Below, one piece after another: positions 2,516 to 60,955 of a stretch of 62,137 nt of DNA. A program made the position numbers and the translations under genes. Position 1 is the stretch's first letter. Each line of letters begins with the position of its first letter. Under the pieces are notes generated by a model, which saw nothing but the letters and a program-made list of their open reading frames with translations, had not been told where the DNA came from and ran no database searches. Origin of the DNA: Rickettsia typhi (lineage in GTDB: Bacteria > Pseudomonadota > Alphaproteobacteria > Rickettsiales > UBA1997); assembly GCA_945900795.1 (NCBI GenBank), contig CAMDJN010000001.1, positions 1 to 62,137 on the forward strand, written 5' to 3'.

Positions 2516-3358
2516 TTGGTACTGACTATTCAAATGGGGGGGGGTGTCACGTCAACAAATGGGGGTACGCCACTTTCTAAAAAAGTTGAGCCCTCGAGCC
2601 AGACTAATTTACCGAGTCAGGAAACGACAAACATGGACTTGCAGCCCACAGATACAAACACAGGTACAATCACAAATAAGGGCGATGGGAATAAAGAGGT
2701 AGGTTCAAAGCAGCTAGATGAAAAAAACAAAGGTGTGGACGATGGGGTGAAAGATAAGGGTGGGGATGGTAAGGAGGAAGAGGGTGATAAGGCGGCGAAT
2801 ATTTTTCTGATGATTGGTGGAGCGCTACTAATGCTAACTTGCATACTACTGATTTTTTTTGCTCCAGCTTTAGGTATAGCGGCTTTTGTGCCAGCTTTGG
2901 AAGGGGCGGCTGTAACTGGAGGGGTCGCGCTTGTTGGCGGGGCTGCTAGCAAACTTTTTAAAGAAAATCCAGATTCAAATAATGAAGTTGACAACAAATC
3001 ACCTAGGCCGGATGTAGAAAAAGGTAGAGGAAAAGAGTTAGAAACTGGACTAGACCACAGTCTAGCAACTAATTCAAAAGATGGTAAGGGGCCGGGTCAC
3101 AAAGTAGATCAGGATTCAGGTCAAAGTAATCCCTACGGTGCTACCCATGAACAATTGAAAGAATTTGATATAAATCACCCTTTTATGACTCAGGAAGATG
3201 AGAAGGCGGCGAGGGTGGAGGCACTTAAACAAGCAATAGATTCAGGGATAATGAGAGATCTATCATCTACTACAGCAGAGGGTGGAAATGAAGGTACATC
3301 ACCGCGAGCACCGACCTTTGCCGCGAGTGGTCAAGGTAGTATAAATATGAATAGATGA
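2516..3358 (+). CDS. Hypothetical membrane protein with a central bilobed hydrophobic domain. The likely real start is ATG 2534, which is followed directly by a G9 tract
   Basis: The ORF in the track begins at TTG; the first ATG is at 2534. Low-complexity G/K/D/E-rich N-terminal part, then about 55 hydrophobic residues (IFLMIGGALLMLTCILLIFFAPALGIAAFVPALEGAAVTGGVALVGGAA). The C-terminal tail is shared with ORF 3718-4518. Confidence 0.55.
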   Translation: MVLTIQMGGGVTSTNGGTPLSKKVEPSSQTNLPSQETTNMDLQPTDTNTGTITNKGDGNKEVGSKQLDEKNKGVDDGVKDKGGDGKEEEGDKAANIFLMIGGALLMLTCILLIFFAPALGIAAFVPALEGAAVTGGVALVGGAASKLFKENPDSNNEVDNKSPRPDVEKGRGKELETGLDHSLATNSKDGKGPGHKVDQDSGQSNPYGATHEQLKEFDINHPFMTQEDEKAARVEALKQAIDSGIMRDLSSTTAEGGNEGTSPRAPTFAASGQGSINMNR

Positions 3359-3360
3359 TA

Positions 3361-3443
3361 CTGACCAAAATTTACAATTAATCCAAACCAACATGACACT
3401 CAGAAAATTAACAGTTAGGGAAGCCTTACGCGAAGCCATCTAG
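3361..3443 (+). pseudogene. Duplicated pdhB leader plus first 16 codons (decoy pdhB start), ended by TAG
   Basis: 3361-3440 aligns almost base for base with 4529-4608, the genuine pdhB upstream region and start. It encodes [16 protein letters not shown] versus the genuine [19 protein letters not shown]. Confidence 0.85.
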
Positions 3444-3472
3444 AGTCTCTACTTTAATTACGCTAAATAACT

Positions 3473-3727
3473 ATGTCTAAAGAACTCAAACAAAAGTCTA
3501 AAGAACCCCAACAAAAGCCTAAAGAACCCCAACAAAAGCCCAGATTACTTAGCGATAAGATGGTTAGTAAACAGGAGCTTGAGGTGTATCTTCCTCTTTC
3601 ACAATTTTACGAAGACATGTCAGGCCTCACAAAAGAGCAAGAATCCAATCTGCTGGTTAATAGAGAGAAAGCGGAAGAGTATCAAAGAGAGGCGATAAAG
3701 ACTCAGGAAAATGGTGTATGCTTTTAG
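3473..3727 (+). CDS. Hypothetical protein with an N-terminal 7-aa (21-nt) tandem repeat
   Basis: 84-aa ORF with SKELKQK/SKEPQQK/PKEPQQK repeats. Its 5' flank is homologous to the flank after the pdhA stop. It overlaps the next ORF by 10 nt in another frame, so these may be two coupled genes or one frameshifted gene. Confidence 0.45.
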   Translation: MSKELKQKSKEPQQKPKEPQQKPRLLSDKMVSKQELEVYLPLSQFYEDMSGLTKEQESNLLVNREKAEEYQREAIKTQENGVCF

Positions 3728-4518
3728 AACAAGAATATCTGGTGCGCATGGTTAATTCTACTACAAATTACTCACGTTCTGCAAATAATCAGCAAGATAG
3801 TTATTCCCGGGAGATTATGGAACGAGAGAAGGATAACAAGAGAGCTGCAGAGGATCAAGTGATAAGTGGGATACAGAGAGATCAGGAAACCGAAATGGGA
3901 GATACTAAAGCTGAGTGGAGGCTTACAACCAATAACCTTGGTGAAGAGTCGATGCAACCTCAGAAAAAGAAAGATTATTTCATTAGCCATGGTTTTGGGA
4001 AAACAAATGTTAGAGAAACAGAAGGTCCTCTTCAATCGAGACCTGTAATAAATTATTACGCTCCGAAACAGTTCGCTTTTCATATGGAGGCTTCTGGATC
4101 AACACCGGGTTACAGTGTTGGTGATATTACAGTTATAACCAACGCTCAAATAATTAATAAAAAATTGCCCGAAGATCAAGAAGCAGAAAGAAAGAAACTG
4201 ACATGGGCAGATAAAGCAAAGGGTCTTTGGAATGATGGAGGCAAGACTCCTTGGCAGAGCATAAAGGCGATACTATCCCTGACATTTACAAAACAACCAG
4301 AAGAAGGTAAAAAAACTAATCAAGGCGCCGAAATGGGTGACTTTCAGAGTAATGAAGTGCAGAGGGAGGGGGCGATGGGGGGGGCACTTAAACAAGTAAG
4401 AGATTCAGGGATAATGGGAGATCTATCATCTACTACAGCAGATGGTGCGAAAGGAAATGGAGGTACATCATCGCCACCGACCGCTATCGCGACTAATAAT
4501 AAAGGTAGGGTAGTGTAA
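3718..4518 (+). CDS. Hypothetical protein; the C-terminal ~45 aa are paralogous to the tail of ORF 2516-3358
   Basis: 266-aa ORF. The tail ALKQVRDSGIMGDLSSTTADG... matches ALKQAIDSGIMRDLSSTTAEG... in the upstream ORF. A G8 tract lies at 4377-4384. Confidence 0.5.
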   Translation: MLLEQEYLVRMVNSTTNYSRSANNQQDSYSREIMEREKDNKRAAEDQVISGIQRDQETEMGDTKAEWRLTTNNLGEESMQPQKKKDYFISHGFGKTNVRETEGPLQSRPVINYYAPKQFAFHMEASGSTPGYSVGDITVITNAQIINKKLPEDQEAERKKLTWADKAKGLWNDGGKTPWQSIKAILSLTFTKQPEEGKKTNQGAEMGDFQSNEVQREGAMGGALKQVRDSGIMGDLSSTTADGAKGNGGTSSPPTAIATNNKGRVV

Positions 4519-4560
4519 ATAGATCATACTGACCAAAATTTACAATTAATCAAAACCAAT

Positions 4561-5553
4561 ATGACCCTCAGAAAACTAACAGTCCGTGAAGCCTTACGTG
4601 AAGCCATGACAGAAGAAATGCGCGCTAATCCAGAAGTTTTTGTGATGGGCGAAGAGGTTGCAGAGTACAATGGTGCCTACAAAGTTACGCAGGGACTGCT
4701 TGCGGAATTTGGTGAGAAGCGCGTGATTGACACTCCAATCACTGAGCATGGATTTGCAGGGCTTGGAGTCGGCGCAGCTTTTGCCGGCCTTACTCCAATC
4801 ATTGAATTCATGACCTTCAACTTTGCCATGCAGGCAATGGATCAAATCGTAAACTCTGCTGCAAAAACTAATTACATGTCGGGCGGACAAGTTCGTTGTC
4901 CAATTGTTTTTCGTGGACCAAACGGGGCAGCGTCTCGCGTTGGCGCTCAGCACTCGCAATGTTACGCCGCTTGGTATGGATCAATCCCTGGACTTAAAGT
5001 AATTTCTCCCTACAGCGCTGCTGATTGCAAAGGATTACTCAAGGCTGCAATTCGTGATCCAAATCCTGTAATTTTTCTTGAAAATGAAATCACCTACGGC
5101 CTCTCTTTCGAAGAGGATTACGATGATGATCATCTTGTTGAAATTGGCAAAGCAAAAGTTCTTCGTGAAGGAAAGGATGTGACAATAATCGCCTTTTCTT
5201 TAGTGGTAAAATATGCCCTTGAAGCCGCAGAAATTCTGGCTTCAAAAGGAATAGATGCAGAGGTAATTGACCTACGCACCATCCGCCCAATTGATCGCAA
5301 AACAATTGTTGAGTCGGTTAAAAAAACCTCACGCTGTGTAACGGTTGAGGAAGGATTTCCATTTGCTTCTGTAGGAAGTGAAATTGCTTCAATCTTGATG
5401 GAAGAGGCTTTCGATTACCTTGATGCCCCTGTAAAAAAACTTGCATCGGTTGATGCTCCACTACCTTACGCCGCAAATTTGGAGAAATTAGCCTTACCAA
5501 AAACTGAAAATATTGTTGCTGCTGTTGAAGAGATTTGCCGTGGGATTTTGTAA
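4561..5553 (+). CDS. pdhB: Pyruvate dehydrogenase E1 component, beta subunit
   Basis: 330 aa. [32 protein letters not shown] and the transketolase C-terminal region are typical of PdhB. Confidence 0.95.
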
Positions 5554-6534: not shown

Positions 6535-6677
6535 TAAACGTAGAGCCTGTATCGTGAGAAGGAATCTTTACTAAACGCAGGAAAGAGCTCAACAAAATGT
6601 TGGATGAGATCAATAAGTTGGCGCAGAAATGGCGCAACTCTAAAGCATCCTAAACGATGAAACTAAAATCTCCTAAA

Positions 6678-6819
6678 GGGAATCTCTAAAAATTAGATTT
6701 TTTTTTAGAAATTTTTAGGCAACAAATTTTCGAGCAGGTAAGCGTACTTAGAGGTACGTGCTCGCGAGAAAATTTGGTAACAACAAAATTTACAAAAAAA
6801 ACAATTTTTAGAGGTTCCC
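6678..6819. mobile_element. Palindromic MITE-like element, family A, copy A1 (subfamily 1)
   Basis: Near-identical to 58508-58659. Ends are gggaatctctaaaaatt ... aatttttagaggttccc, with the core gcgagcaggtaagcgtacttagaggtacgtgctcgcgag. Confidence 0.8.
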
Positions 6820-6841
6820 TAAAGTTCTTTTTCCATTTTTT

Positions 6842-7155: not shown

Positions 7156-7380
7156 ATGGCAAAATTTACGATCAGAAAATTACAAGAAAGAGGCTTCTTT
7201 AAGAATGGCTGGCTTAAGTCTTGCCACACATTTTCTTTTGCCGATTATTATGATCCGAAGCTCGTGAGTTTTCAATCGTTGCGGGTGATTAATGAGGATT
7301 TTATTGAGCCAAAAAAAGGGTTTGATTTTCATCCTCACAATAACAGGGAGATCATCACTGCTCGAAAATTTGTTGCCTAA
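7156..7380 (+). pseudogene. Pirin (YhhW-like) N-terminal fragment truncated by a half MITE
   Basis: ERGFFKNGWLKSCHTFSFADYYDPKLVSFQSLRVINEDFIEPKKGFDFHPHNNREIIT aligns with E. coli YhhW residues up to HPHKDMEILT. The reading frame then continues into MITE sequence (ARKFVA*). Confidence 0.8.
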
Positions 7381-7416
7381 AAATTTCTCAAAAAAATCTA
7401 ATTTTTAGAGCCTCCC
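7358..7416. mobile_element. Half copy of the family A MITE (left arm, inverted) abutting the pirin fragment
   Basis: ctgctcgaaaatttgttgcctaaaaatttctcaaaaaaatctaatttttagagcctccc is the reverse complement of the left arm of A1/A2. Confidence 0.7.
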
Positions 7417-7470
7417 TTGTTTCGAAAACCTTCTTCTGACTTCACAACTTTCCGATTTTAAGCCTTATTC

Positions 7471-9297
7471 ATGCTCTTCCCTAAGGACTTCCCAGACAAG
7501 CTCAGATCGTCAATTTTGGTTTCCGAAGTTGTTGGCAAAAGAGTAAAATTAAAACCCCGCGGCAGAGAGTTTTATGGGCTCTGTCCTTTTCACAACGAAA
7601 AAACTCCATCCTTTACCGTCAATGATCAGAAGGGTTTTTATCATTGTTTTGGATGCTCAGCCAATGGTGATGCGATTAGTTTTTTGATACAAAATGAAGG
7701 TCTAGAATTCAGGGATGCTGTTGTGCAATTGGCTAATGATTTTGGCATTCCAATTCCAAAGGTAAAACCTGAAGAATTCAGGAATAGCATGCCAGCAGAT
7801 GGGATAGAAAGAGACAGACTAATTCTTGAAAAGATCTGCGAATTTTTTGAAAAGAATCTTTACGATGAGATTGGAATCGAGGCAAGAAATTACCTTAAAA
7901 AGAGAAGATTGAGTAGAGTGATCGCAAAGAAATTCCGTCTCGGTTTTGCTAGGAATTCCTACGAATCATTGCTCAATTTTCTTAAATCAGAAAACTTTAC
8001 TGAGGCAGAAATAGCAAAGACCGGGGCCATAAATCGTAAGGATTCAAACAAGATTTATGACAAGTTTCGCAATCGCATAATTTTTCCAATTACTGACAAA
8101 AAAAATCGCATTATTGCTTTCGGCGGAAGAGTCTTGGGAGATGGTTTGCCAAAATATCTAAACTCTTCCGAGACAGAATTTTTTAAAAAGAGTCAAACTC
8201 TTTATAATCTTTTTCAAGCCCGCAAGCCTATATTCGACAAAGGCTACGCTGTAATCGTAGAAGGTTATATGGATGTAATTTCTCTAGTTTCGAATGGGAT
8301 CGAAAATGTTGTTGCAGGCCTTGGAACCGCAGTAGGAGACGAACATCTCAAGGAGCTTTTCTATATCACGGATAAAATCGTAATTTGTTTGGATGGTGAT
8401 GAGGCTGGGATTCGTGCTGCAAAACGTGTTTCAGAAATCTCTCTTTCGCTAATTACTTCTAAAAAAAATATCAGTTTCGCATTTTTACCAAACAAAATGG
8501 ATCCAGATGATTTTATTAAAGAATTTGGCAAGGATGAGTTGGATAAGAAGCTGTCACAAGCGATCCCGCTCTCTGAAGGCCTCTTCGAATTTTCCATGCT
8601 TGATCTTGGAATTGATAGGGGAGTAAAGATTTCTGCAGAAAATAAAGCTAAGCTTGAAGCGAGTCTATCCGCTAAAATCAACGCGATACAAGACCAATCT
8701 TCTAAAAAATATTTCTCACTTTTTTTTAAGGATTCGCTATTTTTCTTGGGAAGGAATGATAAAAAATCTAAGGGTAAAAATGAGTTTGAGTTGGTACAAA
8801 GAATTCATTCAAAACCATCATCTCGACCCGCAGATTCAATAGCTAGAAGCATTCTTGCATATATCATAAAATTTCCAGGCCTAATCAATTTTCATGACGA
8901 AGATTGTGACGTAAAGGGATTGCAGTTTACTAACGAAAATCTTACCAATGCTAAAGATTTGTTGGTTGAACTGTTAGAAAATGAATCCGATCTTTTGTCG
9001 GATGAAATCTTGACCTATCTGGAAGGTCAGGGTTTTTATGAGGATGTTGTTGAGATACGAAAAATCATTTCTGATTTCAAAAACAGTAATTTAGACATTG
9101 ATTCTGCAACATTCAGAATTCGTATTTTATTATTGCGCAACGTGTTGTTGCAGGCTGACTTGCAATATCGTGATCTTTTGAAAGAGAGCGAAATAGAAAC
9201 GCATCAAACAGAAATCATAAATCCGAAAATCACGGAAATTTTTAATTACAAAAACTCACTTGAGCAGAAAATTATTTTGCTTGAAGGAGATTTGTAA
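7471..9297 (+). CDS. dnaG: DNA primase
   Basis: 608 aa. It has the CHC2 zinc finger (CPFHNEKTPSFTV...YHCFGCSANGD) and the Toprim region (VEGYMDVISL, DGDEAG). Confidence 0.95.
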   Translation: MLFPKDFPDKLRSSILVSEVVGKRVKLKPRGREFYGLCPFHNEKTPSFTVNDQKGFYHCFGCSANGDAISFLIQNEGLEFRDAVVQLANDFGIPIPKVKPEEFRNSMPADGIERDRLILEKICEFFEKNLYDEIGIEARNYLKKRRLSRVIAKKFRLGFARNSYESLLNFLKSENFTEAEIAKTGAINRKDSNKIYDKFRNRIIFPITDKKNRIIAFGGRVLGDGLPKYLNSSETEFFKKSQTLYNLFQARKPIFDKGYAVIVEGYMDVISLVSNGIENVVAGLGTAVGDEHLKELFYITDKIVICLDGDEAGIRAAKRVSEISLSLITSKKNISFAFLPNKMDPDDFIKEFGKDELDKKLSQAIPLSEGLFEFSMLDLGIDRGVKISAENKAKLEASLSAKINAIQDQSSKKYFSLFFKDSLFFLGRNDKKSKGKNEFELVQRIHSKPSSRPADSIARSILAYIIKFPGLINFHDEDCDVKGLQFTNENLTNAKDLLVELLENESDLLSDEILTYLEGQGFYEDVVEIRKIISDFKNSNLDIDSATFRIRILLLRNVLLQADLQYRDLLKESEIETHQTEIINPKITEIFNYKNSLEQKIILLEGDL

Positions 9298-9324: not shown

Positions 9325-11841
9325 ATGAAAAAAACTACAAAATCTCAAAGTAAAAAAGTCAAAATTATGGCCAAGAAATCTCCAGTTAAAAAGGTAAAAA
9401 TAGCACAAAAGACCCTAAAAAAATTAGCTCAGAAAATAGCTCAGAAGGTAGTTAAAAACTCGGTCGTAAAAACGATAAAGAAGCCATTAAAAGCAACTTC
9501 AAAAACTACGAAAATTGTGAATAAGAAGTCTCACACAAAAACAGTTATATCTAAGATAAAAAAGCCCTTAGTCAAAAAAACTTTAGTCAAAAAAACTCCC
9601 ATCAAAATTAAGGTTAAAATATCTACAAAAAACTTACAAAAAAAACAGCCACAAATTATTAAGAAAAATAATCCTGTAATCAAAAATTCCGATAAAAAAC
9701 CGGCAAAAAAAATACTAAAATCTGTCGTTACTAAATCTGCAAATAAACTCGTCGCAAAAGCTTCTAAGTCAGGTAAGGTGGTCAAAAATTTACACCCAAA
9801 AAAGGCGAAACAAAAAAATAATCAGGAAGAAAAGCCGCCCACAACTCTGGTTAGAGCGAAGTCAAAAAAAAACGTTCCCGCCAATGACAGAACAAGTTTT
9901 CTTGTCGAAAAATTTCAACTGATTCAAGGCGTAAAATCTGCCCTGCAAAAAAGAGATGAAGAGGGAAGGAAGCTCTCAGAAGAGTTGGGAAGCGTCGTTA
10001 AAAAGCTTTTATCACTTGGAAAGAATCAGGGGTTTTTGACGCATGAGCAAATTAACGAGCATGTCGATTCGGACATAGATTCCCGCAAGATGGACCGCAT
10101 ACTCGATATTTTATCTGAGTTCAAAATTCAGGTTGTTGAGAAGGAGGATGATTTAGAAAATTTGATAGATGAAAACCTGGCAACGAAAGAAGAGGAAAAA
10201 AGTCAAAAACGCAGCGAAGACTCCGTTAAGACTTACCTGAAATCAATGAGTACTGTAAAGCTCTTAACAAGAGAAGATGAAGTCTCGATTGCGATGCGTA
10301 TTGAGGAAGGGCGCAACAAAACTATTAAATCGCTTTACCAGAGCCCAATTACAATGCACCATTTTGTTGAGTGGTATAACGGTTTGTCTGGCGGTACGAT
10401 TTTGCTCCGTGACCTAATCAGAATTGATGAGACTTACAATTCCGAACTTGAAGAGATGATGCGAAATAGTGAGCAGTCAGAAAGCGAGGAAGATATTACC
10501 GCGCTAATCAACGGTCCAGTTGATTCTGCCTCAGACAATCCTGATGAAAATTTATTTGAAGATGATGAGCTTGAAGAGATAGATGAAAGCGTTGTATCCT
10601 TCGTTTCAATGGAGCGCATCCTCATGCCGAAGATGCTCGACCTATTCCAAAGAATATCGCAATTATGCCAAAAAATAATCGACAAATCCGAAGGAAAATC
10701 CTACGAGCGCGCCAAAAAAGATAAAGAAATAAACAAGCTAAAAGAAGATTTTGAACAATTTGCTGAAGAGGTAAGTTTTAATGATTCTCTTATCAAAGAT
10801 TTAGTGGAGCAGCTTTACGAAGCGCAGCAAAAGCTGATCGGTGTTGAAGTTGCGCTGCTTAAACATGCACAAGAATTTGGTGTTGATAAGGCGACATTCC
10901 TTAAAAACTATCACGGATTTGAAGAGAAAGGATGGCTAGAAAATGCGAAAATGGTCAAAGACAAAAAATGGCAAAATTTTCTTACCAACGGTGCCGAAAA
11001 AATTCACGAAACCCAGAAAAAAATTTCTAAATTTGCCCAGATCACGGGCCTCTCAATTCCTGATTTTAAAAGACTCCTGAATAGTATTCACAAGAGTCAG
11101 GACGAGGAATTGAAAGCAAAAAAAGAAATGATCGAAGCCAATCTGCGCTTGGTTGTTTCTATTGCTAAAAAATATACCAATCGCGGTTTGCAGTTTTTGG
11201 ACTTGATTCAAGAGGGAAATATCGGATTGATGCGGGCGGTTGATAAATTTGAATATCGCCGTGGTTATAAGTTTTCCACTTACGCTACTTGGTGGATTCG
11301 CCAAGCCATTACACGTGCCATCGCAGATCAATCGCGCACTATCAGGATCCCAATCCACATGGTTGAAACCATCAACAAAATCGTCAAAACTTCTCGCCAA
11401 CTTACGCAAGAACTAGGGCGCACTCCTGATGCGCAAGAAATTTCTAACAGATTGTTGATGCCGGTTGATAAGGTTAGAAAAGTTCTCAGAACATCGAAAG
11501 ATCCAGTGAGTCTAGAATCTCCAATCTTAGGAGATGATGAAGAAAGTGTTCTTGGAGATTTTATCGAAGACAAAAGCGCGGTATTACCTTTCGACGCAGC
11601 ATCTCATACGAAACTAAAAGAAATTGCAGCCCAAATGCTTTCATCACTTACCCCAAGAGAGGAGAGGGTGCTACGCATGCGCTTTGGTATTGGTATGGTA
11701 ACAGATCACACACTAGAAGAAGTCGGAAAGCAATTTTCTGTAACGCGTGAAAGAATCAGACAAATTGAAGCTAAAGCTTTAAAGAAATTACAACATCCCA
11801 AAAGAGCAAAATTATTAAAAAGCTTTTTACAGGATATGTAG
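9325..11841 (+). CDS. rpoD: RNA polymerase sigma-70 factor RpoD with a lysine-rich N-terminal extension of about 190 aa
   Basis: 838 aa. Regions 2-4 are unmistakable ([90 protein letters not shown]). It follows dnaG, as is canonical. Confidence 0.95.
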
Positions 11842-12020
11842 TTTGCAGAACTTGGCCTAAGTCTTTTTATTTCCCATCTTCCAGACATTAGAGATACTTG
11901 CTTCAGCAAAATTGAAGTTAGATCTTTTTTGATCTGGGATGACAGGGGTGTCAAAAGATTTTGAGTAGGTTTTAGCAATTTAACCGCTATCAACAATGAC
12001 AAAGCTAAAAAAGTCCTCGA

Positions 12021-12734
12021 ATGAATTACAAGTTGGTAACAGATTTTTTAGCAGCGAATGATCTATCCAGAGTTTCGGATTTAAGTGAGAATATCAGAGA
12101 GAAAGTTTTGGAAGAATATCCTGCAATTATTGCAGGATTAATCAGACAATGTCTTGTTCCAAACCCGGATACGGGAGCATTAAAGTTTGAGATGTCGATG
12201 ACGACAGCAACGCAGACAATACGAGAATCATCTAATAAATTAATAGAGTTTTATAATTCTTGTAAAACGGATGAACAGCGTTTAATTGCTGAAAATATAA
12301 CAAGTGAAGCCTTGGCCAAACTTAAGAGACTGCCAGAAGAAATTAATATATCTTGTCGCCCTGAGATGAATTTCAGAAATTTACCAAGAGCTCTGACTAT
12401 GTTGCCTAAATTAAAGGAGTTAACAACTAGGCATTGCACATTTCAAGAGTTACATACCTCTGCACTACATGTTGATTGTTCTTTTAGTCCAAAACTTGAA
12501 ACTTTATTAGTTCCAAATGCAACCAATGTCATATGTGATTTTTGTCCATCTCTGCTTAATCTGAATGTTAAGAAGGGAGTTAAAATTGAAGGAAAGAATG
12601 AGATCGCGTTGGTAGATTATCATACTCATGAATCGCAAAATCCAACATTGCCACCTGGCAATATTGAGGTTAAAGGAGGTGGTAAATTATCAGCGACTAG
12701 TGGTCCCACATTTCCTTGTTGTACAATCTCGTAG
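12021..12734 (+). CDS. Hypothetical protein with LRR-like units and a C-terminal CaaX box (CTIS)
   Basis: 237-aa ORF. It has LPKLKELTTRHC..., SPKLETLLVPNATNV and CPSLLNLNVKKG repeats, and ends ...GPTFPCCTIS*. Confidence 0.6.
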   Translation: MNYKLVTDFLAANDLSRVSDLSENIREKVLEEYPAIIAGLIRQCLVPNPDTGALKFEMSMTTATQTIRESSNKLIEFYNSCKTDEQRLIAENITSEALAKLKRLPEEINISCRPEMNFRNLPRALTMLPKLKELTTRHCTFQELHTSALHVDCSFSPKLETLLVPNATNVICDFCPSLLNLNVKKGVKIEGKNEIALVDYHTHESQNPTLPPGNIEVKGGGKLSATSGPTFPCCTIS

Positions 12735-12764
12735 AATCCTTCTACTAGCAATATCACCATCATC

Positions 12765-13943
12765 TTGCAGCCTACTATGGTAAATTTCGAACTTTCCTCA
12801 TTTGCCATTGACGAAACGAAATCGCGAGGTCGGCTTCATCTGGAAGCGCACGATGACTCAAAATTCCGCTCAATCTTTGGTCGTGACCGTGACCGCATCA
12901 TCAACTCTTCCGCTTTCCGCCGCCTTCAATACAAGACCCAAGTTTTTGTAAATCATCAGGGTGACCATTACCGCACACGTCTCACTCATTCACTCGAAGT
13001 TGCTCAAATCGCTCGCTGGATTGCTGGCGCCCTTAATGTAAATAAAGATTTAGCAGAGATAGTTTCTCTCGCCCACGATCTTGGCCACACACCCTTTGGT
13101 CACGCAGGAGAAGATGCTTTGCATGAGAAGATGGAAAACTTCGGAGGTGAAGGGTTTAGTTTTTCACACAACGTTCACACGCTTAAAATCATTACAAAAC
13201 TTGAGACACGCTTCATTGAGTTTGAAGGTTTGAATTTGTCGTGGGAGATGCTCGAAGGAGTGGTGAAGCACAATGGTGCAATTATTGATGAATCAAATCT
13301 AGATGATTACATCCGGGAGTACAATTCGATTCACGACCTCGATCTAAAATCAACTCCATCGCTCGAGGCACAAATCTCAGCAATCGCTGATGACATCGCT
13401 TACAATAATCATGATTTGGAAGATGGTCTTAGGGCTGAGTTATTTACCGTTGAAGAAATTCTATCCCTCCCTCTTGTTGGAAAAATTTACCAAGAAATTT
13501 TGTGGAAATATCCAAATTTAAAACGCGAAATGTTGGTAGGTGAAGCTAAGAAGCGTCTTACTCTGACAATGGTTTTGGACGTTATTCAAAATACAAAAGA
13601 TAATCTAGAACAAGCTTTGATTAAAAATGTAGAGGATGTCAGAAATACAAAAAAATTCCTGGTAAATTTCTCTGATGAAATGGAGCGGGCCCACCAAGCG
13701 CTAAAAAAATTCCTGATGGAAAACATGTATCGTCACCCAATTGTTAACGAGATGACGCAGTATGCCACAAAGGTTGTCGAGGGGCTTTTTGATTTTTATA
13801 TCAATAATCCAAAATCACTGCCAAGAGAAAATGGTGATCCAGTAATCCACGACAAAAAACATTTGGCGATTACGGTTTCCGACTACATCGCTGGGATGAC
13901 TGATAGGTTTGCGATTAGAGAATTTAAAAATTTGAAGATATGA
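12765..13943 (+). CDS. dgt: Deoxyguanosinetriphosphate triphosphohydrolase-like protein (HD domain)
   Basis: 392 aa. RDRDRIINSSAFRRLQYKTQVF, RLTHSLEVAQIAR, HDLGHTPFGHAGE and DYIAGMTDRFA are all present. Confidence 0.9.
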   Translation: MQPTMVNFELSSFAIDETKSRGRLHLEAHDDSKFRSIFGRDRDRIINSSAFRRLQYKTQVFVNHQGDHYRTRLTHSLEVAQIARWIAGALNVNKDLAEIVSLAHDLGHTPFGHAGEDALHEKMENFGGEGFSFSHNVHTLKIITKLETRFIEFEGLNLSWEMLEGVVKHNGAIIDESNLDDYIREYNSIHDLDLKSTPSLEAQISAIADDIAYNNHDLEDGLRAELFTVEEILSLPLVGKIYQEILWKYPNLKREMLVGEAKKRLTLTMVLDVIQNTKDNLEQALIKNVEDVRNTKKFLVNFSDEMERAHQALKKFLMENMYRHPIVNEMTQYATKVVEGLFDFYINNPKSLPRENGDPVIHDKKHLAITVSDYIAGMTDRFAIREFKNLKI

Positions 13944-14515
13944 GTAAACGTTACGAATACTCGCAACCACAAACCAAGCCACAAAAACATGATTTAAACC
14001 ATCTTTTTGAAATATACAAAATCGATGAGGAGATGCGTGGCGACATAAAGGCCGCTGCTGTTAATTTGCAAATATCAGAAGATAATTTTGTTGGGTTTGT
14101 GTCTGGGTTTATTTGTAAAACGATAGGCGAAAATAACCCAGAAAATCCTGCTAGATCCTCTCATATAAATCTTTCCAAAATAATTGGTAGAAGAAAATTC
14201 AATCCAGATCCGAAATCATTAAAAGCTCTTGGTATCCTTGAGGCGATGGGTTTAAATTTAGATCGTAAGTCAAATGCTCCTGAGCAGACTTTGTGTGTCA
14301 GTGGAAGAGTTCCTGATCCCAATGATAATCTTGATCCGAACGGTAATTTAGGAATGAATCGGGTATTGGAAATGCTTCATGCCAAAGTAATTGAGGGTCA
14401 GGTGCTTCGGCTTTCTTCAGATGGTTTAACCGAGGAAGAGAGATCAGAAAAGACTGAAGAGATCAGAAGCAATGTTAAAAATCTTTTTAACCTCAACCTT
14501 AAAAACGCCAGCTGA
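13940..14515 (+). CDS. Hypothetical protein (orphan)
   Basis: 191-aa ORF whose ATG overlaps the dgt stop (ATGA). I recognise no motif. Confidence 0.45.
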   Translation: MSKRYEYSQPQTKPQKHDLNHLFEIYKIDEEMRGDIKAAAVNLQISEDNFVGFVSGFICKTIGENNPENPARSSHINLSKIIGRRKFNPDPKSLKALGILEAMGLNLDRKSNAPEQTLCVSGRVPDPNDNLDPNGNLGMNRVLEMLHAKVIEGQVLRLSSDGLTEEERSEKTEEIRSNVKNLFNLNLKNAS

Positions 14516-25703: not shown

Positions 25704-25917
25704 CGGAACCCCTGAAAAACCGTCTTTTTCGGTAACTTTGTCGTTCAGACCAATTTGCTCGCGAGCACGTACCTCTAAGTACGCTTACCTGCTCGCAAAC
25801 TGATCTTCCTAGAGATTCGCTTCGCTCATGCTCGTTCTCATCTAACGACGCAGGCGTCGTTTCGGCTAAAGCCGTTGATTCGAACTCCTCGAAAAATCTA
25901 GGTTTTTCAGAGGTTTC
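25704..25917. mobile_element. Family A MITE, copy A5 (subfamily 2, inverted, with an extra internal module)
   Basis: It has the same ends and core as 51440-51582 and 60757-60907 in reverse orientation. It also has an extra module of about 75 nt: gagattcgcttcgctcatgctcgttctcatctaacgacgcaggcgtcgtttcggctaaagccgttgattcgaac. Confidence 0.8.
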
Positions 25918-32464: not shown

Positions 32465-32521
32465 TATACCCATTCCGCCTGAAGAAGCCGATCTCTGACT
32501 TCTTCAGGCGGAATGGGTATA
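32465..32521. repeat. Perfect 23-bp stem / 11-nt loop hairpin, related to family B arms
   Basis: tatacccattccgcctgaagaag ccgatctctga cttcttcaggcggaatgggtata. The 3' arm contains the ATG at 32513. Confidence 0.85.
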
Positions 32522-34069
32522 ATTTTTCTCCTTACCCATCTTAACAAACTGACTAAAGTGAGTCTCGTTAGCAACATCTACCTGCTTATTTTTCTGCCGT
32601 TAATTTCATCCCTATTTTGTCAAATTTTTGGCAAAAGAGGAGTGTCGTTTTTAATTGCGATTACCGCTTGTGTTGCCTTGTTTTTTATGATTATTCGGAT
32701 CTTTCCCGATATCTTGATTTATGAAAAAGTAAGTAATGATTTTGAGCTTTCACCACTTTCTCTTGCCCTTGAATTCAGGCTAGACATACTAGGAGCGGCA
32801 TTTTTGTTATTGGCGGTATTTCTTAAAATCGTTATTTTGTTTTTCTACGCTTCAGACATAAAAAAATTTCTAAACGAGAGAAATGATCGCATTTTTTATT
32901 CTGTTTTTCTTCTGCAATTATTTGGTTTGGTTGGGATATTTACAACCAATAATTTGCTAAATCTTTTTTTATTTTTTGAGATTTACGCCTTCAGTTTCTT
33001 TGCAACGATTTCAATTTCTCGCGATAATAATCTTCTCAAACTTTCTTTTCGTTATTTTTGTCTTAACGCCGTCTCGTCTCTATTAACCCTATTCTGTATC
33101 TTGGTAATTTATCTCACATTTGATGAGGTGAGAATTGATAGAATTTCTGAAAATTTATCAATGTTATCAGGTTCTCAGGCGTGGTTTGTGATTACGATTT
33201 CCCTACTTTTGATTGCTTCCTTAATAACTAAATTTTTTCCATTTTGGCTTTATTTTGAGAAGCTAAAAAGCGATAGTTTGATTGCCAATTTTCTTACCAT
33301 TGAATCACTTTTTATTAAGACAATTGTTGGCATTTTTTTGGTTGTAAAGTTTACCTATTTTTTTGGTTATTCGATGCTGTTTGATAGGTTTTGGTTTATG
33401 GAAATCTCCATTCTGATCGCCGCATCTTTGATCGTTTATAGCTCGTTTAAGATATGCAAACAAAAGCACTTAAAGATAATCGCAACCTATCTGTGTCTGA
33501 ATAATTTGGGTTTTATCATCCTATGTCTTGCGCTTTACTCGCTTGATTCATTACGGGCGATGTTTTTTTATCTCTTAAATTTTAGCTTGGTGAATTTGTT
33601 AATTTTTATTTTTTCTACCTTCTTGAAGCGCTATTATCACACTTCTGCACTTAGTAAAATTTTTCTAATCAAACAAGATCACTTCTCTTTGGTTTTGCCA
33701 TTGAAGTTTTTAACCTTCGCTATTGTGGCATTTCCGATGACGATTTTATTTTTTGCTAATTGGTATTTTGCGCAGGCTAGCATTGGTTTTGGTCCAAGAT
33801 CGTCCCTTCTGATATTTGTGGTGATAGCAAATTTTTCCTACATGGTTTTGGTAATTAGATTGATTTCAGTATTTTTCGCAGAAAAACCTGCCGAACGAAA
33901 TGAGTTGCGTCAGGTAGGATTTAAAAAGTATCAGTACCTGGTTTCTTTCTGGTTTTTAATTATGGCCATTTACACGATATCATTGGCATCGGGACAGGTA
34001 AATAACGTTTCTGATAAGTTTGCACATTATCTTTTACTTGATCCCACATCAAAAAAATTTAACCCATAA
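32513..34069 (+). CDS. Divergent proton-antiporter-like membrane subunit (NuoN/MnhD, Proton_antipo_M-type), stand-alone
   Basis: 518 aa, about 14 TM segments. GLVGIFTTNNLLNLFLFFEIYAFSFFATI (conserved TM5 Glu), ITKFFPFWLYFEK (Lys retained, the PFH.W.PD motif degenerate) and LKIIATYLCLNNLGFIILCLAL are present. The start is uncertain: either ATG 32513 inside the hairpin or GTG near 32558. Confidence 0.55.
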   Translation: MGIIFLLTHLNKLTKVSLVSNIYLLIFLPLISSLFCQIFGKRGVSFLIAITACVALFFMIIRIFPDILIYEKVSNDFELSPLSLALEFRLDILGAAFLLLAVFLKIVILFFYASDIKKFLNERNDRIFYSVFLLQLFGLVGIFTTNNLLNLFLFFEIYAFSFFATISISRDNNLLKLSFRYFCLNAVSSLLTLFCILVIYLTFDEVRIDRISENLSMLSGSQAWFVITISLLLIASLITKFFPFWLYFEKLKSDSLIANFLTIESLFIKTIVGIFLVVKFTYFFGYSMLFDRFWFMEISILIAASLIVYSSFKICKQKHLKIIATYLCLNNLGFIILCLALYSLDSLRAMFFYLLNFSLVNLLIFIFSTFLKRYYHTSALSKIFLIKQDHFSLVLPLKFLTFAIVAFPMTILFFANWYFAQASIGFGPRSSLLIFVVIANFSYMVLVIRLISVFFAEKPAERNELRQVGFKKYQYLVSFWFLIMAIYTISLASGQVNNVSDKFAHYLLLDPTSKKFNP

Positions 34070-34076
34070 ACAGACT

Positions 34077-35108
34077 ATGAGCATAGCTGCACTAGATTCT
34101 TACCTCTTACCTTTAAAACAGATTCTTGATCGTGATGGAGTAAATGAGGTTTCTATTAATCGACCTTTTGAAGCTTGGATTGAACTGAGAGGAGATATGT
34201 CGCGTGAGAGCTTGCCGACATTCGATTTAGAGCATTTAAAATCTCTTGGAAGGCTTGTTGCGCAAGCAACTGAGCAGAGGTTAAGCGAGGAAGAGCCTCT
34301 TCTTTCCGCAACTTTGCCGAATGGTTTTCGTGTCCAAATAGTTTTTCCTCCAGCCTGTGAGACGGGATGCGTAGTGATGTCAATTAGAAAGCCATCAGTT
34401 TTAAAATGGAATTTGGATGATTATGAAACGATGGGAATGTTTGAGTCTACCTCAGTTGGTGAAGTCGAGGACAAAAATAATCTGATTTTGATGAAGTTGT
34501 TAAAGCTGAATCGTGTTAAAGATTTTCTTGAACGCTGTGTTATTTACAAAAAAAATATCATCATTTCCGGTGGTACCTCAACCGGTAAAACGACTTTCAC
34601 TAATGCCGTGATACGCTCCATTCCTCACGAGGAAAGATTAATAACTGTTGAGGATGTGAGGGAAATCGAACTGTCATCGCATGAAAATCGAGTACATCTT
34701 TTGGCGTCTAAAGGTGGGCAGGGTAGGGCAAAAGTTACCACTCAAGATTTAATTGAGGCCTGTCTCAGACTTCGTCCTGAAAGAATTATCGTTGGTGAGT
34801 TGAGGGGTTCTGAAGCCTTTTCTTTCTTGCGCGCAATCAATACCGGTCATCCGGGATCAATCTCAACTCTCCATGCTGATACTCCAAAAATGGCTTTGGA
34901 ACAATTAAAAATGATGGTTATGCAAGCTGGTCTTGGTGTAACGCCAAGTGAAATTGCTTCTTATATTCACAATGTGATTGATGTTGTGGTACAGTTGAAG
35001 AGGGGTAGCGGTGGTTTGCGTTATGTTTCGGAAGTCTATTTTAAACCATTGTCAGATCGACAAGATGCGCAGCAAAAACAACATGAGGAAACAAAAAACA
35101 ATGAATAA
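34077..35108 (+). CDS. virB11: Type IV secretion system ATPase VirB11
   Basis: It has [16 protein letters not shown], the Walker A motif [25 protein letters not shown] and [13 protein letters not shown]. The start is taken at ATG 34077 ([10 protein letters not shown]), 8 nt after the upstream stop. Confidence 0.9.
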
Positions 35109-47019: not shown

Positions 47020-47204
47020 TTAAGGAGCCCTCTGAAAAACCATCTTTTTCGGTCATTTTGTCGTCAGACCAATTTGCTCGCAAACTGATCTTCCTAGAGA
47101 TTCACTTCGCTCATGCTCGTTCTCATCTAACGACGCATGCGTCGTTTCGGCTAAAGCCGTCGATTCGAACTTCTCAAAAAATACAGGTTTTTCAGAGGTT
47201 CCTT
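47020..47204. mobile_element. Family A MITE, copy A6 (has the extra module, lacks the central hairpin)
   Basis: It has the same ends and extra module as A5. The segment gagcacgtacc...cctgctcgc is missing between two tgctcgc direct repeats. Confidence 0.8.
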
Positions 47205-51409: not shown

Positions 51410-51439
51410 GGAGTTTTAGAGGAAATTTTTTATACAAAT

Positions 51440-51582
51440 GGAACCTCTAAAAAGCCTGGATTTTTCGAGGCATTTTTAGGAAGATCAGTTTGCGAGCAGG
51501 TAAGCGTACTTAGAGGTACGTGCTCGCGAGCAAATTGGTCTGACGACAAAATTACCGGAAAAGATGGTTGTTCAGAGGCTCC
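51440..51582. mobile_element. Family A MITE, copy A3 (subfamily 2)
   Basis: ggaacctctaaaaagcctggatttttcgagg...gcgagcaggtaagcgtacttagaggtacgtgctcgcgag...ttcagaggctcc is near-identical to 60757-60907. Confidence 0.8.
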
Positions 51583-51600
51583 AAAAGAGCTCGTCAAGGC

Positions 51601-58507: not shown

Positions 58508-58659
58508 CCTAAGGGAACCTCTAAAAATTAGATTTTTTTTTAGAAATTTTTAGGCAACAAATTTTCGAGCAGGTAAGCGTACTTAGAGGTATGTGCTCGC
58601 GAGAAAATTTGGTAACGACAAAATTTACAAAAAAAGCAATTTTTAGAGGTTCCCTTAGG
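58508..58659. mobile_element. Family A MITE, copy A2 (subfamily 1, best preserved)
   Basis: It has perfect 22-nt terminal inverted repeats, cctaagggaacctctaaaaatt ... aatttttagaggttcccttagg, and the whole element is an imperfect long palindrome. Confidence 0.85.
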
Positions 58660-58707
58660 TTTTGTGCAGTTGGCGAGTGTGGAAAAAGGGAGTCGGATTA
58701 TTTTATT

Positions 58708-60756: not shown

Positions 60757-60907
60757 TTAAGGAACCTCTGAAAAACCTGGATTTTTCGAGGCATTTTTAG
60801 GAAGATCAGTTTGCGAGCAGGTAAGCGTACTTAGAGGTACGTGCTCGCGAGCAAATTGGTCTGACGACAAAATTACCGAAAAAAATGGTTTTTCAGAGGT
60901 TCCTTAA
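60757..60907. mobile_element. Family A MITE, copy A4 (subfamily 2, best preserved)
   Basis: It has perfect 21-nt terminal inverted repeats: ttaaggaacctctgaaaaacc ... ggtttttcagaggttccttaa. Confidence 0.85.
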
Positions 60908-60955
60908 ATTACTTCCCGCCTCAATCTTGCATATTCAACCTTAAAAATAAGTAAC

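Follow-up and report, generated by a model that had tools for sequence, protein, structure and literature searches.

Gene content of the locus

The DNA analyzed here is a 62,137-nt stretch (contig CAMDJN010000001.1, positions 1 to 62,137 of the forward strand; hereafter the window) that represents a housekeeping region of an AT-rich alphaproteobacterium. It encodes pdhA/B, dnaG-rpoD, dgt, ftsQ, ddl, trpS and RNase P RNA as well as kdtA, lpdA, queF, lpxD, eno, trpF, trpE, NAD-glutamate dehydrogenase, pntA and membrane proteins of the NADH:quinone oxidoreductase/Mrp antiporter family. Between rpoD and dgt lies an orphan open reading frame (ORF), ORF237, whose 237-residue product ends in a eukaryotic prenylation (CaaX) box and possibly is an effector farnesylated by a eukaryotic host. 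The gene and the spacer that precedes it are as follows.

12021..12734, + strand: ORF237, orphan protein-coding gene with an ATG start, 237 aa and a TAG stop, C-terminal end ...SATSGPTFPCCTIS
11842..12020, + strand: spacer between rpoD and ORF237, 179 nt, scanned for promoters and terminators

The coordinates, translation and terminal codons that the initial annotation assigned to a 237-aa ORF with the C-terminus ...GPTFPCCTIS were all reproduced, as was its location between rpoD, which ends at 11841, and dgt, the ATG of which is at 12777. Gene calling on two assemblies that share an origin (ENA ERZ27280286 and Logan ERR3719165) gave ORF237 each time. With stops at a frequency of 0.066 per codon, given the base composition of the window (36% GC), only ~0.00075 chance ORFs of 237 codons are expected in the six frames, so ORF237 is beyond chance expectation. 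The dgt gene starts 42 nt 3' of ORF237; the two genes share a frame and are separated by one TAG and 14 sense codons (12732-12779). The shared frame was judged a coincidence, at about 1 in 8. Read-through of the TAG into dgt was considered and rejected because dgt of related genomes starts at the equivalent residue.

A scan of the spacer detected no consensus promoter or terminator in 11842..12020. The absence of a Shine-Dalgarno motif at ORF237 is uninformative because such motifs are scarce in the window (9 of 48 genes). The coding frame of ORF237 is the top one of the six by codon score, and the score itself (0.041 bits/codon) is the lowest among the plausible genes, compared with at least 0.145 and a mean of 0.25 for core genes; GC content at third codon positions (GC3) is 0.27 vs 0.31-0.46 in core genes. 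These values fit a foreign or young gene and also a weakly selected one. The predicted protein contains no signal peptide and no transmembrane segment (maximum Kyte-Doolittle value over 19 residues, 1.15).

The C-terminal CaaX box and its tail

The C-terminal part of ORF237 comprises a linker, a pair of adjacent cysteines and the box; the codons given are those of the translation.

12603..12716, + strand: linker, residues 195-232, predicted to be disordered, rich in small and polar residues, ...PPGNIEVKGGGKLSATSGPTFP, leading to the Cys pair
12717-12719, + strand: Cys233 (TGT), adjoining the CaaX Cys; candidate S-acylation site by analogy with PelC of Legionella
12720..12731, + strand: CaaX box C-T-I-S, in which Cys234 would be the farnesyl acceptor
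12720-12722, + strand: Cys234 (TGT)
12723-12725, + strand: Thr (ACA)
12726-12728, + strand: Ile (ATC), a2 position
12729-12731, + strand: Ser (TCG), X position
12732-12734, + strand: stop codon (TAG)

The box had been proposed in the initial annotation, and the proposal stands: Cys is the fourth residue from the exact C-terminus, and Ile at a2 and Ser at X agree with the aliphatic a2 and the kind of X residue expected for farnesyltransferase or geranylgeranyltransferase I. Furthermore, the tetrapeptide is one accepted by a eukaryotic prenyltransferase, being identical to the CTIS box of human GBP1, a published substrate. The GBP1 box is farnesylated (PMC2903825, PMC2998424), GBP1 devoid of CTIS is lost from membranes (PMC2998424), and a GFP-Gly4-CTIS fusion is targeted to the Golgi, the targeting being abolished by a farnesyltransferase inhibitor (PMC2998424). 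Given this sensitivity of the fusion to the inhibitor, CTIS can be considered a proven farnesyltransferase substrate in a similar minimal context. Apart from the tetrapeptide, GBP1 and ORF237 are unrelated, and the stretch before the box is polybasic in GBP1, whereas in ORF237 it is a neutral Gly/Ser/Thr/Pro linker with an extra Cys.

In both AlphaFold2 (AF2) models of ORF237, the predicted local distance difference test (pLDDT) values are below 50 at residues 195-214 and 218-237. The last ~43 residues (195-237) are predicted to be disordered, and Gly, Ser, Thr and Pro abound in the last ~40, so that, judging by the AF2 prediction and the composition, the box is preceded by an accessible, flexible linker. 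Such a disordered tail of small and polar residues is predicted to suit the requirements of prenyltransferases for their substrates.

For the Cys adjacent to the box, the comparison with H-Ras made in the initial annotation is not apt because the palmitoylated cysteines of H-Ras do not adjoin the CaaX Cys. RhoB and the Legionella effector PelC appear to be better parallels. RhoB ends in CCKVL, and S-acylation of an adjacent Cys following prenylation occurs in RhoB and in Salmonella SifA. The published reverse primer for PelC decodes to ...CCTII*, that is, the Cys-Cys-Thr-Ile context found in ORF237. The five C-terminal residues of ORF237, CCTIS, also fit the CCXXX pattern of Rab-type double geranylgeranylation. 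This modification requires the Rab escort protein, which recognizes the Rab GTPase; in the Pfam and NCBIfam scans, ORF237 showed no GTPase domain, and this type of prenylation was rejected.

Among the real genes of the window, ORF237 is the only one with Cys at position -4, the other matches being shadow ORFs; in the loci of related genomes, none of the 328 ORFs of at least 150 aa has a Cys at this position. Because ~1-2 CaaX endings per genome are expected by chance, the box alone is weak evidence, and the case for its relevance rests on the accompanying features.

The repeat region and its relatives

Upstream of the linker, the protein consists of an N-terminal region and a short repeat domain.

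12021..12386, + strand: N-terminal region, residues 1-122, predicted to be mainly helical (AF2 pLDDT 44-86)
12387..12590, + strand: repeat domain, residues 123-190, three 19-residue Cys-containing units resembling leucine-rich repeats (LRR), from phmmer alignments
12510..12563, + strand: best-kept unit VPNATNVICDFCPSLLNL, residues 164-181, detected with a single-unit hidden Markov model (HMM)

An exhaustive phmmer search of 1.84 billion representative sequences produced five weak matches to ORF237, of which three were retained: P0003 (1063 aa, E = 5e-6), P0005 (498 aa, E = 4e-4) and P0006 (554 aa, E = 9e-4), the E-values referring to the whole library. The other two, P0002 and P0004, are unrelated repeat proteins (with NHL repeats and low-complexity sequence, respectively) and were discarded as spurious. 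The three retained proteins, which come from uncultured bacteria, share a rare 19-residue repeat with the consensus APNATELNCSGCTALTSLS (xPNATxLxCxGCxxLxSI) that is present in 8-17 copies. P0003 additionally contains a eukaryote-like HECT ubiquitin-ligase domain (42.9 bits vs the Pfam cut-off of 23.9) and reaches the Pfam LRR_4 model (31 bits vs a cut-off of 27); in P0006, a BTB match remains below the threshold (18.7 vs 20.5 bits).

These proteins are the only detectable sequence relatives of ORF237. Residues 123-190 of ORF237 align with three successive 19-residue units of P0003, P0005 and P0006, with a 2-residue deletion in the first unit. When the relatives were used as queries, ORF237 scored 17-29 bits, compared with a best score of 9.0 among 400 global shuffles and 11.3 among 400 local shuffles; none of 400 shuffles reached the real score. 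With a single-unit HMM that was built without ORF237, unit 164-181 obtained 13.3 bits, whereas 2000 shuffles gave no more than 8.7. It is the sole ORF237 unit to match this model, the two others being degenerate; no other protein of the window outscores it, and over 457 kb of fetched loci it is the only match outside loci L046 and L047. The degenerate units pair with equally degenerate units of P0003 (CSFSPKLETL vs CSYSPVIESI and KELTTRHC vs KEITTHDC). The relatives differ from ORF237 in having 8-17 units, in P0003 together with HECT, and ends other than CaaX, compared with three units followed by a CaaX box. Searching with a profile of the repeat alignment A1 yielded only three short fragments (P0009-P0011, from contigs of ~1 kb); this search says little because it failed to recover the source proteins of the profile itself. 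For the N-terminal region (residues 1-122), there are no detectable relatives and no Pfam or NCBIfam match.

Locus L046 (1552-15192), which belongs to a 2.86-Mb contig with a GC content of 37%, carries four or five neighboring genes for HECT-domain proteins that contain the 19-residue repeat. The location of P0003 within such an array of HECT paralogs looks like the genomic context of effectors. In L047 (5950-9149; contig GC 43%), two tandem 498-aa repeat proteins adjoin a secretin gene.

With respect to the LRR character of these units, tandem units in the ~19-29-residue range with regularly spaced Leu/Ile/Val (and Cys or Asn) are present in ORF237, one of them well kept, whereas no curated LRR profile is matched; in NCBIfam, no LRR family was found for ORF237, and the only match to the whole protein in the Pfam and NCBIfam scans is a non-significant one to NleF_casp_inhib (E = 0.091). 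With a single sequence, AF2 gave a pLDDT of 37.5. When a hand-built shallow alignment of the repeat segments was supplied, which may bias the result, the pLDDT exceeded 90 for residues 131-180 and was 75 for residues 121-130 and 83 for residues 181-190. In this model, the repeat region shows short strands at intervals of ~9-10 residues. The weak Foldseek matches of this model are mostly LRR proteins (ADR1, SDS22, TLR3, InlC, Toll, LRRC8D, SHOC2 and VLR, among others). Membership in the LRR family is not demonstrated because these structural matches are non-significant and no LRR profile matches ORF237; judging by the model, the label "LRR-like" appears reasonable, short of demonstrated family membership. 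The three or so Cys-containing LRR-like units of the initial annotation are upheld by an alignment that beats all shuffles. ORF237 contains 9 cysteines (3.8% vs a background of 1.1%), including a CxxC signature (C172 and C175) in the best-kept unit.

Orphan status and gene order

A word-indexed search of 5.8 billion sequences returned ORF237 alone, no full-length relative was found among the 1.84 billion representatives searched with phmmer, and tblastn detected no match in plasmids or phages. ORF237 is also missing from 43 dgt loci of related genomes and from the two nearest rpoD loci (79% identity), even though the flanking genes in the nearest genomes are 76-79% identical. In the two nearest loci, rpoD is followed by recJ and an unrelated orphan, or by dps; in the relatives, dgt is preceded by kbl or thiL. 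Because these other genes occupy the respective positions, ORF237 is absent from the relatives rather than diverged beyond recognition.

The gene order in the relatives is kbl-dgt-hexapeptide transferase-DUF2610-ddl-ftsQ. In the window, rpoD-ORF237-dgt-ORF191 precede ftsQ-ddl-DUF2610-hexapeptide transferase, a block that is inverted and has ORF237 and ORF191 at its two junctions. An orphan gene with atypical composition at a synteny breakpoint would, by analogy, conform to a pattern that is common among accessory host-interaction genes. Insertion of a mobile element was considered as the origin of ORF237 and rejected since the palindromic repeat family of the window has no copy in 11842-12777.

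ORF191 (13940-14515, + strand) is a second orphan, of 191 aa, that overlaps the stop codon of dgt; it lacks Pfam and NCBIfam matches, and none of the 43 related dgt loci contains it. Locus L048, from the nearest rpoD relative, encodes an unrelated 407-aa orphan (7379-8602) with a repeated C-terminal segment (SRPSAISIGS.R.A.E) after rpoD-recJ. Given that unrelated orphans are located there in both genomes, lineage-specific genes seem to have a hot spot downstream of rpoD.

The organism and its secretion system

The top matches of the window dgt (57-76% identity) come from lake-water metagenome-assembled genomes (MAGs) labelled Rickettsiales or Alphaproteobacteria; the dgt of 'Rickettsiales bacterium UBA1997' is 67% identical. 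According to a preprint, the family UBA1997 is confined to fresh water and has a reduced genome rich in amino-acid biosynthesis genes, and its cells were found attached to cryptophyte algae by CARD-FISH (10.1101/2023.01.31.526412). The trpE and trpF genes of the window fit this description, and the window can be tentatively placed in this family.

One gene of the window encodes a secretion ATPase:

34020..35108, + strand: VirB11 type IV secretion ATPase, NCBIfam NF010475 573 bits (cut-off 389), TIGR02788 391 bits (cut-off 250), Pfam T2SSE

NF010475, which this protein passes, is the equivalog model of the Rickettsia-type VirB11. The gene is isolated, lying between a membrane protein gene (32513-34069) and lpxD. 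The presence of VirB11 indicates that a type IV secretion system (T4SS) is encoded at least in part in this genome, and the T4SS is the only plausible route for translocation of ORF237 visible in the window.

Comparison with known effectors

For Legionella and Salmonella, it is amply documented that the host prenylates proteins injected by the bacterium. Salmonella SifA (C-terminal CLCCFL) is translocated, prenylated by the host and S-acylated on the neighboring cysteines; it differs from ORF237 in being a geranylgeranylated type III substrate with another fold and shows no homology to it. In Legionella, host prenylation anchors CaaX effectors to host membranes (PMC2916131, PMC13081727), and in PelC, a Dot/Icm effector, the CaaX Cys is required for localization to the vacuole (PMC13081727). 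As a predictor of type IV effectors, the CaaX box is accepted for alpha- and gammaproteobacteria (S4TE, PMC3814349), and an in silico survey of 20 pathogens and one endosymbiont identified CaaX proteins in all of them (PMC2916131).

Like the Legionella proteins AnkB and PelA-K/CMPs, ORF237 comes with no prenyltransferase of its own and carries the CaaX box on a flexible tail; the combination of a eukaryote-like interaction domain with CaaX is also shared, F-box and ankyrin repeats in AnkB corresponding to the LRR-like repeats in ORF237. The Legionella effectors, however, are not homologous to ORF237, belong to a different organism and are substrates of the Dot/Icm (type IVB) system as opposed to a VirB-type (IVA) one; moreover, their translocation and prenylation have been shown by experiment, whereas those of ORF237 are proposed. 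On sequence-level features, ORF237 would fall into the class of prenylated effectors, as a protein non-homologous to the known members. Host prenylation of Rickettsiales effectors is not demonstrated in the literature that was searched, and a search combining CaaX with the Rickettsiales genera gave no CaaX paper.

The LRR effectors YopM, IpaH and SspH resemble ORF237 in consisting of short repeats of ~20 residues, which in these effectors form a solenoid that binds host proteins. The YopM LRR is the best PDB sequence match of ORF237 (...NATNVICDFCPSLLNLNVKK vs N..s.lcDlPPSLv.LnV), with a non-significant E-value of 0.055. In contrast to YopM, ORF237 has about three 19-residue units and a CxxC signature that is not found in YopM.

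Interpretation and alternatives

The reading that we tentatively prefer, with somewhat less than even confidence, is that ORF237 is a gene of a eukaryote-associated, freshwater, Rickettsiales-like lineage whose product would be an exported effector, farnesylated by the host and tethered to a membrane. As part of this reading, ORF237 is proposed to be a recently acquired or recently evolved lineage-specific gene. Expression, translocation, prenylation, acylation and target binding are the steps that we infer. A soluble protein would be made in the bacterium and exported into the eukaryotic partner, most plausibly via the T4SS. There, host farnesyltransferase would add a farnesyl group to Cys234 of the CTIS box, the -TIS residues would be trimmed and the new C-terminus methylated, and the neighboring Cys233 might become S-acylated. 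The flexible tail of ~40 residues would then pin ORF237 to a host membrane, at which the short LRR-like repeat domain could bind a host protein. The more specific claim, that ORF237 is the first host-farnesylated type IV effector of Rickettsiales, built on an undescribed 19-residue Cys-containing LRR-like scaffold that unrelated uncultured bacteria fuse to HECT domains, and injected by an epibiotic or early host-associated freshwater lineage into a protist or algal partner, is rather unlikely to hold in full. If it did, the hijacking of host prenylation would have arisen independently beyond Legionella and Salmonella, in a lineage near the transition to intracellular life.

Several observations weigh against the host-farnesylated effector. 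With the generous pattern C-x-[ILVM]-[SMAQCLFTN] and the amino-acid composition, chance alone would give a CaaX ending to 0.14% of proteins, or ~0.065 per 48-gene window and ~1-2 per small genome, and the ending of ORF237 was singled out after the fact. The repeat-bearing relatives all lack a CaaX end and, in the absence of an orthologue or paralogue, there is no evolutionary sign of selection on the Cys or the tail. As for the binding domain, no Pfam LRR model matches ORF237 at E-values up to 10, Foldseek found no significant match in the PDB (best E = 0.35), and the high pLDDT values of the repeats stem from the hand-built shallow alignment. The codon score, lower than in any core gene, is compatible with decay or very weak expression as well. 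The placement of the organism among the UBA1997 epibionts depends on one marker, with 67% identity along with 76% to unlabelled lake MAGs. Finally, VirB11 is the sole vir gene in the window, and a complete T4SS with a coupling protein is not shown.

A real if doubtful possibility is that ORF237 is a genuine protein with a small LRR-like binding domain, the CaaX-like end of which is coincidental, with no lipidation role for the Cys pair; it would then act unprenylated, either inside the bacterial cell or after secretion or injection. The chance rate of such endings, the abundance of cysteines in ORF237, which raises the odds of a terminal Cys, the lack of CaaX ends in the repeat relatives and the lack of an orthologue-based conservation signal are all compatible with coincidence. 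The match, however, goes beyond a loose pattern, being a specific tetrapeptide with proven farnesyltransferase competence; it terminates a disordered linker and is accompanied by a second Cys as in PelC, and ORF237 combines several independent effector-like traits. It is improbable that ORF237 is a decaying remnant, such as a truncated, horizontally acquired repeat or effector gene, or else a young proto-gene at a rearrangement junction. Both the low codon score (0.041 bits/codon vs at least 0.145 in core genes) and a GC3 of 0.27, below the core range, are in keeping with such an origin, as are the three repeat units, two of them degenerate, compared with 8-17 units plus a catalytic domain in the relatives, the position at a synteny breakpoint and the upstream region devoid of a consensus promoter. 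Yet an ORF of this kind, with an expectation of ~0.00075, is unlikely without selection or a very recent origin, its frame is the best one of the six, and the tidy layout of the protein, with a helical N-terminal region, repeats, linker and CaaX, stops exactly at a functional motif. It is very improbable that the terminal Cys-Cys serves metal or redox binding, or a disulfide with a partner, in the bacterial cytoplasm or periplasm. The nine cysteines, with CxxC (C172, C175) and the terminal CC, would be suggestive in this respect; against this, CxxC is a feature of the repeat consensus that is structural in the relatives, ORF237 has no signal for export to an oxidizing compartment, and no metal-binding family of Pfam or NCBIfam is matched.

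Should ORF237 indeed be farnesylated, it would provide an easily cloned handle on the interaction of freshwater Rickettsiales-like bacteria with protist or algal partners and would support T4SS-mediated manipulation of host cells already in these lineages. It would also offer the first functional context for a rare repeat family that accompanies HECT domains elsewhere. If the CaaX box is coincidental, the locus would be another case of an orphan gene at a rearrangement junction.

Other features of the window

Two further orphan ORFs, 2516-3358 (280 aa) and 3718-4518 (266 aa), interrupt the pdhA-pdhB pair; neither matches Pfam or NCBIfam. They have in common a 43-residue C-terminal motif with 56% identity (...ALKQ.(I/R)DSGIM.DLSSTTA.G...), and positions 3204-3439 repeat 4367-4607 at 90% identity, with a second 5' end of pdhB included. 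This arrangement points to a tandem duplication of ~1.17 kb as the probable source of the diverging pair (2516-4607).

Palindromic intergenic repeats of ~100-150 nt, in both orientations, are located at 6676-6826, 7358-7418, 25716-25915 and 47029-47204, with further copies of the same family at 51438-51588, 58511-58661 and 60759-60909; none is near ORF237. This family is reminiscent of the Rickettsia palindromic elements or of miniature inverted-repeat transposable elements.

The rpoD gene encodes a Lys-rich N-terminal extension of ~200-250 residues with KK..K.K repeats (9325-10100 in the window; 2741-3500 in L048). The extension is thus present in the nearest relative, L048, as well, and is much shorter in the more distant L049.

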